Shown here piece after piece: positions 48,426 to 49,414 of a stretch of 64,000 nucleotides of DNA (the first letter of the stretch is position 1; every line of letters starts with the position of its first letter). A program made the translations under genes and the position numbers. The stretch is taken from the NCBI GenBank assembly GCA_041389065.1, contig JAWKSM010000001.1, forward strand, positions 80,320-144,319. The letters run 5' to 3'. This stretch comes from Minisyncoccota bacterium (lineage in GTDB: Bacteria; Patescibacteriota; Minisyncoccia; Phycocordibacterales; CSBR16-119). The notes beneath the pieces were generated by a model, which was given only the letters and a program-made list of their open reading frames with translations, was not told the origin of the DNA and ran no database searches.

Positions 48426-49414
48426 ATATACTATTATAACTCATAAAAATCTTACCCAAAATCAACAAGACCCAACCAATGGGGTCGGGTCTTACATCTT
48501 TTTCATCTAAATTGTCGCCTAAAACGGCGTGTGACGAATGGTTACGTCTAGGAAAGAACAAAAATTTACTTCAAATGTACAAATCTACGATTATAAGTCC
48601 GTCGACTAGATTTATTAAGTTTTTGGTCGCTCCCCTGTGCGAAATTCTTCAGGCTTTTGTCGTTCGAAACTTCGTAAGAATGAGATGATACTTTTTTATA
48701 TTGACCCTTAAAAGTGGGTGACTATGTATCTCTATGTGATTCTTCTAAATCTTCGAACACTTTTATTATAAATCTAAAAGACATAAAGGACAAAAATTAT
48801 CTTGTGGATAACTTATGTCTCTTTCTTTTCCCTTGAAGGAAAAGAAACAAAAGTTCAAGACGCAGAAAAATATATTCTAAAAATCCGCCATTTATATGAA
48901 GAAAACTGTGAACTCGCTATACAGCTCAAACAGCACAGCTTTTCTACCATATAAATGGCGGATTTTCTTAACGATATATTTTAAGCGTCGAAATCTCTTC
49001 GATTATAGCCTATACAGGTTATTTTTTAATAATGTCCTTAATAAAATGTTGTATGTCTTTTAAAAAATAAGGAGGTGTTACCTTACGGTAACACCTCCCA
49101 TATTGGCTCACACATTGATCCGTCTGTATTATTACTTACCTAGACGGTTTCCTAAAAGGCAAGGATCTTTGAAGGCTAGCTTTTGTTTGGCGGGTAGGAC
49201 TATCAACACCCGTAAGCTTTAATTTTAAGTGACCCAAAGCTTAAATGATCACCATCCCCAAGTATTAACTCCTCTTGGAGAACCAAGGATAAACCTGTTC
49301 AACTTCTTTTTTGTGTGAGCAAGAGTAAAGAACATCATTTTTATCTTATATTTTAAAAATTATAATTGCAATACGTAATATAAAAAAACCCCATTCGGGG
49401 ATTCTTTTATTTTT

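Follow-up and report, generated by a model that had tools for sequence, protein, structure and literature searches.

A conserved structured-RNA candidate and strain-variable hairpin units between dsbB and holA in a Paceibacterota genome

Genes and coding status of the locus

The 64,000-nucleotide (nt) stretch of contig JAWKSM010000001.1 analysed here (the window) contains a non-coding gap between p188 and dsbB (48426-49414), which a preliminary description had proposed as a candidate locus for structured non-coding RNAs (ncRNAs). To the left of the gap lie polA, a PEMT-family gene, and holA (plus strand), followed by p188 (minus strand), and to the right dsbB and a thioredoxin-like gene (trx), both on the minus strand. 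The flanking proteins point to a metagenome-assembled genome (MAG) of Candidatus Paceibacterota, within the candidate phyla radiation (CPR); as CPR genomes are very small and densely coding, a kilobase of kept non-coding sequence is unusual. Three putative units were delimited in the gap (Table 1): RNA-C, the conserved core next to p188; RNA-B, a member of a family that we call the long-hairpin element (LHE); and RNA-A, an accessory unit next to dsbB. All of them are most likely to be read on the minus strand, as judged from their sequence features.

The gap had been described as having no open reading frame (ORF) of 60 amino acids (aa) or more. Taken literally this is incorrect, as there is one mechanical ORF of 69 aa (48479-48688, plus strand), but no ORF there is conserved. 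In relatives, the frame and the length of the 69-aa ORF differ, the alignments of the region contain frame-breaking indels of 1, 2, and 4 nt, and each of the six frames carries 12-30 stops, of all three kinds. A small protein-coding gene was rejected because no ORF keeps both frame and length in relatives, and an alternative genetic code or hidden ORF because each frame contains all three stop codons and relatives do not keep the 69-aa ORF.

The minimum free energy of the gap lies far below that of dinucleotide shuffles on both strands: -283 kcal/mol against -211 +/- 9 on the minus strand (z -8.2) and -255 against -193 +/- 9 on the plus strand (z -7.2). A scan for intrinsic terminators found three sites, against 0.7 +/- 0.7 in shuffles, and a GC-rich hairpin followed by a U tract closes both RNA-A and RNA-C on the minus strand. 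Inspection by eye had matched the gap to neither transfer-messenger RNA (tmRNA), RNase P, nor signal recognition particle (SRP) RNA, and the database searches agree with this. Rfam 15 (4227 models) at the gathering score returned only tRNAs in the window and eight loci; at E<=10 with lax filters it gave, for the gap, only sub-threshold microRNA and leader look-alikes, and at E<=5 five divergent homologous loci had no match over RNA-C. Overall, no family was assigned to the gap when the window, the gap itself, and 13 related loci were scanned, and ARAGORN predicted 0 genes and no tmRNA in 48000-49800. With regard to a phage or plasmid origin, blastn found no match to the region in phage and plasmid collections, and a pattern search of viral contigs gave 0 matches for RNA-C and 3 for RNA-A, the latter GC-rich and due to chance.

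The gap was compared with 29 related loci from Paceibacterota MAGs (numbered with the prefix L), gathered by looking up the exact proteins of homologues of p188 and holA, by one 20-mer scan across species-representative genomes, and by one metagenome scan; a protein-pattern scan of metagenomes with holA gave no match. Relatives keep the gene order trx-dsbB, gap, p188 (where present), holA, while the length of the gap varies: 337 nt in L027, 455-465 nt in L006, L007, and L022, 628-646 nt in L004, L016, and L017, 989 nt in the window, 1363 nt in L003, and 1445 nt in L001.

Table 1. Predicted features of the gap and of the adjoining p188 gene (positions in the window)
Feature	Position	Strand	Basis or remark
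dsbB intrinsic terminator, CCCC-GAAU-GGGG + U7 run	49382..49403	-	read from sequence; upstream limit of the non-coding array
RNA-A promoter, -35 TTGCAA (49371-49366), 17-nt spacer, -10 TAAGAT (49348-49343)	49343..49371	-	read from sequence; plausible
RNA-A, accessory structured RNA, ~275 nt	about 49336->49061	-	L003 homologue and terminator
RNA-A closing helix GCUCACAC/GUGUGAGC	49320-49313 with 49113-49106	-	
RNA-A terminator, GGAGGTGTTACC hairpin + UUAUUUUUU	49099-49070	-	terminator scan: 13-bp stem, 7 GC, then T run
12-bp perfect repeat GGAGGTGTTACC / GGTAACACCTCC	49071-49082 / 49087-49098		inverted-repeat search
RNA-B promoter-like site, TTAAAA, 16-nt spacer, (GC)TATAAT	49002..49029	-	promoter scan 10/12; tentative
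RNA-B, LHE family member	48858..48996	-	covariance model R1, 116.6 bits, E 9e-25 (model short-calibrated, E-values rough)
RNA-B basal stem, GACGC..AAAAUAUAU with AUAUAUUUU..GCGUC		-	
RNA-B 19-bp perfect inverted repeat	48880-48898 / 48948-48966		inverted-repeat search; 49 nt between arms
RNA-B 8x5 internal loop CUGUUUGA/GAGUU	48933-48911	-	motif search places it as expected
RNA-B apical hairpin, GCU-GUAU-AGC		-	
AT-rich palindrome UUUCUUUUCC-UUCAAG-GGAAAAGAAA	48822..48847		perfect 10-bp inverted repeat
Perfect DnaA box TTATCCACA (TGTGGATAA)	48803..48811	-	9 nt upstream of the RNA-C -35 hexamer
RNA-C promoter, -35 TTGTCC, 17-nt spacer, -10 TATAAT	48765..48793	-	promoter scan 10/12
RNA-C, structured RNA, ~305 nt	about 48760->48455 (48455..48760)	-	alignments and covariation
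RNA-C 5' hairpin domain, GUUCGA...UCGAAC		-	
RNA-C invariant block CAAAAGCCUGA	48659-48649	-	
RNA-C hairpin P6, invariant loop CAGGG(G)	48642-48627	-	loop complements upstream GCCUG
RNA-C hairpin UAGUC-GACG-GACUA (5 bp)		-	covaries
RNA-C invariant block UUGUUCUUUCCU	48561-48550	-	
RNA-C hairpins GACG-UAACCAUU-CGUC and CGCC-GUUUUA-GGCG		-	
RNA-C terminator, 13-bp hairpin + U run	48495-48465	-	terminator scan
p188 -10 box TATAAT (48438-48433), 7 nt ahead of ATG (48425-48423)	48423..48438	-	read from sequence
p188 gene, 188 aa	47859-48425	-	all-alpha protein

RNA-C, the conserved core

RNA-C was found in every relative whose holA is at least 53% identical, and nhmmer detected one copy per locus. 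The stretch 48426-48815 has 70-100% nt identity, with compensatory pair changes, in every lineage with a holA 53-100% identical. RNA-C itself reaches 84-100% in L001-L015 and 70-76% in L016-L022, and it is also present in L026 (holA 53%; nhmmer E 5e-72). Outside the near-identical strains, the flanking holA of the relatives bearing RNA-C is 53-82% identical; RNA-C is 84-86% identical where holA is 78-82% at the aa level. Since RNA-C keeps 70-76% nt identity where holA keeps only 54-71% aa identity, ~300 nt of the gap appear to be under selection at least as strong as that acting on the neighbouring replication genes. In L027 (holA 43%) only the DnaA box, UUUUUGUUCUUUCCU, and a terminator are left of RNA-C, and in L028 (holA 41%) nothing of it remains.

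The place of RNA-C between holA (or p188) and dsbB is constant: it always adjoins holA, and also dsbB wherever the contig extends that far. It persists with or without the downstream p188 or the upstream modules. In L010, L016, L017, L019, and L026, where p188 is absent (as it is in L027), RNA-C is kept and abuts the 3' end of the convergent holA.

The consensus fold computed with alifold across nine lineages has 49 predicted pairs, with 92.7% of the cells paired. Double changes affect 11 of the 49 pairs; shuffles give 5.2 (0/500) and slid controls 1-5. For hairpin P6, the nine lineages have eight stems that differ in sequence and are all complementary, and the hairpin GACG/CGUC is replaced by GGGG/CCCC, AGCG/CGCU, and GAGG/CCUC in other lineages. 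The P6 loop CAGGG could pair with the upstream GCCUG, forming a candidate pseudoknot. Conserved across the clade are the promoter, the DnaA box ahead of it, several single-stranded stretches, and short helices that change by compensatory substitutions. On these alignments, RNA-C qualifies as a stand-alone, single-copy gene kept across a Paceibacterota clade.

The spacer of the RNA-C promoter is invariant and holds a tandem 9-mer, TGTCCTTTA, followed by TGTC(C/T)TTTA (Tandem Repeats Finder: period 9 nt, 2.4 copies); the block TTTGTCCTTTATGTC(C/T)TTTA...TATAAT is unchanged in 12/12 aligned sequences. The motif has no other occurrence in the window, and a regulon sharing it was rejected for this reason. 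RNA-C was placed on the minus strand because its promoter and terminator lie there, because G·U pairs occur in its helices and terminator (the terminator of several lineages retains a G·U or U·G pair), and because the sense fold is more stable than the antisense fold, by 3-13 kcal/mol in 6/6 lineages.

The perfect DnaA box noticed in the preliminary description is real, although it starts one base before the 48804 given there, and it is one of three perfect boxes in the window. The consensus 9-mer TTATCCACA is found in orthologous position in the relatives: almost every aligned lineage retains the GTTATCCACA box, as does the highly diverged L027; in L017 it reads GTTATCCCCA, and the extract of L021 begins downstream of the box. 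Most lineages have 9 nt between the box and the -35 hexamer, L016 and L022 have 18 nt, and in L016 (6092-6130) two adjacent DnaA-type boxes, GTTATCCACA-C-TTTTCCACA, lie ahead of the RNA-C promoter. Boxes with at most one mismatch number 24 across the window, against 16.6 expected, with no clustering in the gap; the gap has a single box, where an origin of replication (oriC) would have several of them with an AT-rich unwinding element, usually next to dnaA. An origin in the gap was rejected on the grounds of this single box and of dnaA lying 28 kb away, and the box is best read from its sequence context as a conserved element upstream of a predicted RNA promoter, not as an origin.

The strain-variable part: RNA-B and RNA-A

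The gap is made of a conserved part (48426-48814) and a strain-variable part (48815-49414). Through 48814, the public contigs L001 and L002 match the window at 100% identity, and they depart from it at 48815; the similarity of L001 picks up again inside dsbB, with 93.9% identity to the right of 49452. Either recombination with a breakpoint bordering the RNA-C promoter or a chimeric assembly of strains may explain this switch at 48814/49452. Depending on the strain, the variable part is elsewhere filled by a gene family of 223-276 aa, a long hairpin element, both, or neither, and no lineage lacks a strong hairpin in the interval from dsbB to the RNA-C promoter. The comparison identifies the spacer as a recombination hot spot, at which small RNA modules and accessory genes are exchanged between strains.

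The 223-276-aa family (35-56% mutual identity) lies in the dsbB/RNA-C spacer of L001 (2674-3345), L003 (4694-5524), and L008 (7296-8000), and is absent from the window. When p188, p223, p276, p193, and p177 were compared with Pfam, PADLOC, and PHROGs, nothing significant was found, p177 giving a weak sub-threshold P-loop match.

RNA-B includes the 19-bp perfect stem with a 49-nt loop that had been noticed before, which was recovered exactly where it had been placed; the pairings inside the loop are CUGUG/CACAG and GCU/AGC. This 87-nt hairpin is the inner part of an imperfect palindrome of ~140 nt, and the stretch 48862-48996 folds with z -6.6 relative to shuffles. The LHE family has two members in the window, RNA-B and a plus-strand copy at 4709-4851, which are the only two found there with R1. 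The same scan found at most one per related locus: one each in L001/L002, L004/L009, L010/L013/L014, and L012. A short form with the basal stem only is present in L016 and a linear motif only in L017, and the element is optional, being absent in L003, L006, L007, L011, and L022.

The members share a common plan, consisting of a basal stem, a middle helix, an 8x5 internal loop (5'-(C/U)UGYUUGA / 5'-GAGUU), and a variable apical hairpin, and six of them have the same fold, with z from -5 to -8. The helix sequences are almost wholly different between lineages and still complementary, with 90% of the cells paired. Double compensatory pairs are 27 of 52, against 12.9 in shuffles (0/500) and 4-10 in slid controls, and R1 scores the sense strand at 117-150 bits and the antisense strand at 17-37. 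The covariation alignment that the preliminary description had suggested yields compensatory pair changes in both RNA-C and LHE, and these comparisons demonstrate purifying selection together with compensatory evolution in the two elements at the level of sequence. As for the copy at 4709-4851, it agrees with the gap copy at 28/28 positions of the 5' arm, its 3' arm is of the type of L001 and L004, so that the basal stem cannot pair, and it looks like a recombinant of two element types.

Between RNA-B and the RNA-C promoter, the AT-rich palindrome at 48822-48847 is likely to be a terminator or insulator. The same hairpin is present in L012 and L016, analogous TTACTTTTTT..AAAAAAGTAA palindromes occupy the same place in L004, L009, and L010 and occur elsewhere in the window, and most LHE copies are followed by an AT-rich palindrome. 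Palindromes of the form (C/T)TACTTTTT-N6-7-AAAAAGTA(G/A) recur after genes and RNA units, in the window (4862-4887, 19460-19484, and 48822-48847) and in relatives (L001 3614-3638, L004 5579-5604, and L010 3597-3622). They may be the generic bidirectional terminators of this genome. The hairpin and U run following dsbB are also present in L012, and T/A runs are bidirectional in the window.

The further hairpins reported at 49140-49330 were found again, in a stretch that is slightly GC-richer (49100-49330) and falls within RNA-A. RNA-A has a homologue in L003 (3322-3600, ~70% identity), in which 12 of 46 predicted pairs are changed on both sides and the terminator stem is unrelated. Its promoter there reads TTGCAA-17-TAATAT and stands at an unchanged distance from the conserved GAUGUUCUU start. 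Neither the sequences compared nor the viral, phage, and plasmid collections yielded a further copy. The L003 copy lies on the other side of the trx-dsbB operon, adjoining an extra P-loop gene and a tRNA gene, and in L012 RNA-A is missing precisely between imperfect direct repeats, T(A/T)ATTTTT(T)AAAA. RNA-A was assigned to the minus strand because its promoter and terminator place it there. In L003 (2662-3600), the extra gene (177 aa, AAA_18-like) stands between the tRNA gene and trx, in a small island absent from L004.

The hairpin at 49071-49098 had been read as the pairing of a Shine-Dalgarno (SD)-like sequence with an anti-SD-like one. The hairpin exists, but the reading does not hold, since this is a minus-strand Rho-independent terminator in a genome without SD enrichment; the resemblance of the stem to SD/anti-SD is coincidental, because the stem of L003 is unrelated and the genome lacks SD-led genes. 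Indeed, no SD enrichment was seen upstream of 59 gene starts across the whole window, and many ATGs lie 5-10 nt downstream of TATAAT, TAAAAT, or GCTATAAT, a pattern which suggests that the mRNAs of this genome are mostly leaderless. GCTAT before the -10 box, as in the RNA-B promoter-like site, is enriched upstream of genes in this genome. An anti-SD or SD-sponge role of the RNA-C block UUGUUCUUUCCU or of the GGAGG stem was rejected, given the lack of SD enrichment, the mostly leaderless genome, and the lack of complementary sites. Separately, the 3' end of RNA-A (49061-49082, minus strand, AACACCUCCUUAUUU) resembles the 3' tail of 16S rRNA; this likeness is probably coincidental, because the L003 copy does not share it.

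By the preliminary description, its ncRNA proposal was to be abandoned if Rfam assigned nothing and the region proved neither conserved nor expressed, or if a protein-coding gene with an alternative start codon came to light. Rfam assigns nothing, but conservation is present, and the proposal is supported by the conservation of 48426-48815, the compensatory changes, the 27 of 52 LHE pairs, and the RNA-A homologue. Three misleading leads are removed at the same time: the origin of replication, the SD/anti-SD switch, and the missing gene.

Interpretation and alternative explanations

Sequence comparison resolves three modules with promoter-like and terminator-like boundaries on one strand, and it shows that RNA-A, LHE, and the accessory gene are gained and lost modularly at one hot spot. 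We consider it probable that three non-coding transcription units, all on the minus strand, are arrayed head to tail in the gap, between the trx-dsbB terminator and a leaderless p188. Each unit would be bounded by a sigma-70-like promoter and a hairpin terminator. RNA-C would act in trans and fold compactly, serving as a scaffold for proteins, as a catalyst, or as a binder of a ligand, and not as a simple base-pairing small RNA (sRNA), because its conservation lies in many unpaired blocks and a candidate pseudoknot and not in one seed. DnaA bound at about -60 could modulate RNA-C transcription, coupling the RNA-C level to the replication cycle. RNA-B would most likely be a stable hairpin transcript, or else a DNA palindrome, and could also shield the RNA-C promoter from dsbB read-through, while RNA-A would be a strain-specific accessory sRNA gene ending in the hairpin formerly read as SD/anti-SD.

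Several observations weigh against this array. Promoter-like sites in the region number four, against 4.6 in shuffles, so they show no excess, and we infer promoters, transcription starts, and strands from consensus matches; the link to DnaA is likewise drawn from a single 9-mer. Both blocks of the RNA-C pseudoknot are invariant and lend it no covariation support. The upstream promoter of RNA-B is weakly or not conserved among family members, the LHE helices are nearly pure Watson-Crick (0-3 G·U per ~50 pairs in 5/6 members), and the second copy in the window has mismatched basal arms. RNA-A is known from two sequences, and its folding energies, sense against antisense, do not tell which strand is read. 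Finally, the contig may be a strain chimera joined inside RNA-C, which would leave the modules as they are but alter which strain carries which.

The most serious alternative, which we hold to be possible though doubtful, is that the hairpins, above all RNA-B/LHE, are DNA-level repeats resembling enterobacterial repetitive intergenic consensus (ERIC) sequences or miniature inverted-repeat transposable elements (MITEs), or stacked terminators or insulators, gained and lost by recombination and without RNA function, so that only RNA-C would be a gene. As the LHE helices are almost all Watson-Crick, the structure could act equally well at the DNA level, and the forward and reverse-complement energies are near equal. 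This alternative would also account for the presence and absence of LHE between close strains (L006, L007, L011, and L022 without it, L016 with the basal stem, L017 with the linear motif), for the hybrid copy at 4709-4851 with its 28/28-identical 5' arm and foreign 3' arm, and for the strong hairpin that every lineage keeps between dsbB and the RNA-C promoter. Against it, the LHE imperfections are fixed in place, with the 8x5 loop CUGYUUGA/GAGUU and the 2-nt loops around GCY/RGC persisting while the helices covary, and R1 distinguishes the sense from the antisense strand.

The comparison with ERIC and MITE elements runs along the same lines. LHE is likewise a ~140-nt intergenic imperfect palindrome, present or absent between close strains, with short and long nested forms, and probably within transcribed regions. 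It differs in that its helices change fully between lineages, the 8x5 loop is kept, and the conserved sequence is strand-asymmetric; moreover, only two copies occur in the 64 kb, where such elements have many, and no terminal inverted repeats, target duplications, or transposase were seen. In its long irregular hairpin (~140-170 nt) with an internal loop LHE also recalls 6S RNA, and two copies per window would fit species with two 6S RNAs, but its loop is only 8x5 nt, it is dispensable in close strains, and it has no Rfam 6S match. An integron attC site, which would have R''/R' boxes (RYYYAAC / GTTRRRY) at its outer ends, cassette arrays, and an intI nearby, was rejected because the conserved bases are central and not terminal and no integrase is among the neighbours. 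A kink-turn, in which tandem G·A/A·G pairs beside a canonical helix come straight after a 3-nt bulge, was rejected for the LHE loop: on each strand the tandem GA pairs adjoin the apical helix, and a 3-nt bulge immediately 5' of a GA is missing.

It is unlikely that RNA-C or RNA-A is a diverged housekeeping RNA (6S, RNase P, SRP, or tmRNA) missed by Rfam in an AT-rich CPR lineage. RNA-C is admittedly single-copy, ~300 nt long, strongly conserved, and equipped with its own strong promoter, and the Rfam scan found none of these four RNAs elsewhere in the 64-kb window. There are also short resemblances to such RNAs (UAGAUGAA, ACAAAAGCC, and UCGACGG). On the other side stand the lack of any Rfam match, even at E<=10 with lax filters for the window or in the five divergent homologues, and the negative tmRNA search with ARAGORN. 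The RNase P-like blocks are in the wrong order and have no P4 complement, RNA-C shows neither a GNAR helix-8 motif nor an end-to-end closing stem with a central bubble, and the family is limited to a narrow clade, with two landmarks remaining at 43% holA identity. RNA-C was rejected as a 6S RNA since its consensus has separate 5' and 3' domains and no end-to-end stem, and manual sequence comparison likewise rejected RNase P CR-I/CR-V, the tmRNA 5' end, SRP helix 8, loop E, and the hammerhead core.

Still less likely is a cis-regulatory leader, i.e., RNA-C as riboswitch or attenuator of p188 and RNA-A as a similar leader. The terminator hairpin of RNA-C does stand 40 nt ahead of the p188 start, and in L003 RNA-A ends ~60 nt before trx on the same strand. 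However, a leader would co-occur with the gene that it regulates, and RNA-C is retained, abutting the convergent holA, in the five lineages without p188 named above; downstream of RNA-A in the window there are other RNA units and no coding gene. Furthermore, as the -10 box of p188 lies 7 nt before its ATG, the p188 mRNA is taken to be leaderless, and RNA-C is then not its 5' untranslated region; the start block of p188, GTTATAATAG...ATGG, is conserved.

We regard as highly improbable that the region is a DnaA-related chromosomal element (a secondary origin, or a titration site of the datA/DARS kind) with incidental hairpins: the box is perfect, strongly conserved, and doubled in L016, and the replication genes holA and polA are nearby, but the box stands alone and not in a cluster, a further perfect box is found with dnaA and dnaN at 20.4-23.2 kb, and the conserved 300 nt have RNA-type covariation and G·U pairs. 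The least credible proposal, that the variable 600 nt (48815-49414) are a decayed gene of the p223/p276 family, has in its favour that L001, L003, and L008 carry such a gene exactly at this spot, but tblastn and tblastx found no similarity of the stretch to p223/p276, and it matches non-coding modules elsewhere (L003 3322-3600, L010, L012, and window 4716-4743).

Within the proposed array of three transcription units, RNA-C appears to be closest to orphan structured ncRNAs, and LHE to ERIC-like imperfect palindromes. Like the orphan ncRNAs of the raiA, OLE, ROOL, and GOLLD type, RNA-C has its own predicted promoter and terminator, many short helices with covariation, unpaired stretches that are conserved, a putative pseudoknot, and a narrow phylogenetic range. 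It differs from them in being smaller than OLE, ROOL, and GOLLD, in matching none of the Rfam 15 models, and in its conserved DnaA box, invariant promoter spacer, and confinement to a Paceibacterota subclade. RNA-C bears the marks of a compactly folded RNA matched by no database, and it is among such orphan RNAs that new ribozymes, riboswitches, and ribonucleoprotein scaffolds have been discovered. By its sequence features, RNA-C is a new RNA family of a known general kind, the orphan structured ncRNA, and LHE is a new hairpin motif. For a more specific reading, the arguments seem to us about evenly balanced: RNA-C would be an undescribed class of ~300-nt, pseudoknotted, replication-cycle-coupled RNAs of a Paceibacterota clade, made from the invariant promoter under the conserved DnaA box and working, for instance, as a ribonucleoprotein scaffold, ribozyme, or ligand sensor, and LHE a second new RNA motif with its 8x5 loop as a protein-recognition site.

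Promoters controlled by DnaA boxes are known in Escherichia coli for dnaA, nrdAB, and polA. The RNA-C promoter is similar in having a single consensus 9-mer TTATCCACA just upstream, conserved across lineages, and differs in that the putative regulated product is an ncRNA; if true, an ncRNA linked to a DnaA box would add a new kind of output to those of the replication initiator. The terminator hairpins of RNA-A and RNA-C, in turn, have the GC-rich stem and U run of Rho-independent terminators, with no essential difference.

In the literature on structured RNAs of CPR bacteria, only the work on TIGR-Tas turned up. TIGR stem-loop guide-RNA arrays occur in CPR bacteria and phages, and the defining features of TIGR-Tas are tandem units, dual spacers (8-12 nt) flanked by box C/D, and an adjoining gene with a Nop domain (PMC12045711). 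The gap shares with them hairpin units, variable palindromic stems, small conserved loop motifs, and the genome of a parasitic bacterium, but it has neither a tandem array nor box C/D pairs around spacers, and no Nop-domain (Tas) gene was found within ~6 kb or in p188, p223, p276, or their neighbours.

Among the neighbouring genes, p188 is mosaic and hypervariable: in L006 and L007 it is 58% identical despite a holA at 99.6% and a dsbB at 97.7%, with the N-terminal ~68 residues conserved and the rest replaced. Its AlphaFold model is all-alpha (predicted local distance difference test score, pLDDT, 87) and has no PDB match at E<=0.001. Away from the gap, dnaA (20502-21848) and dnaN (22098-23195) lie close to another perfect DnaA box (20407), in a region (19391-23195) with ~1.1 kb upstream of dnaA devoid of long ORFs. 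This is probably the oriC region, and small genes such as rpmH may lie upstream of dnaA there.

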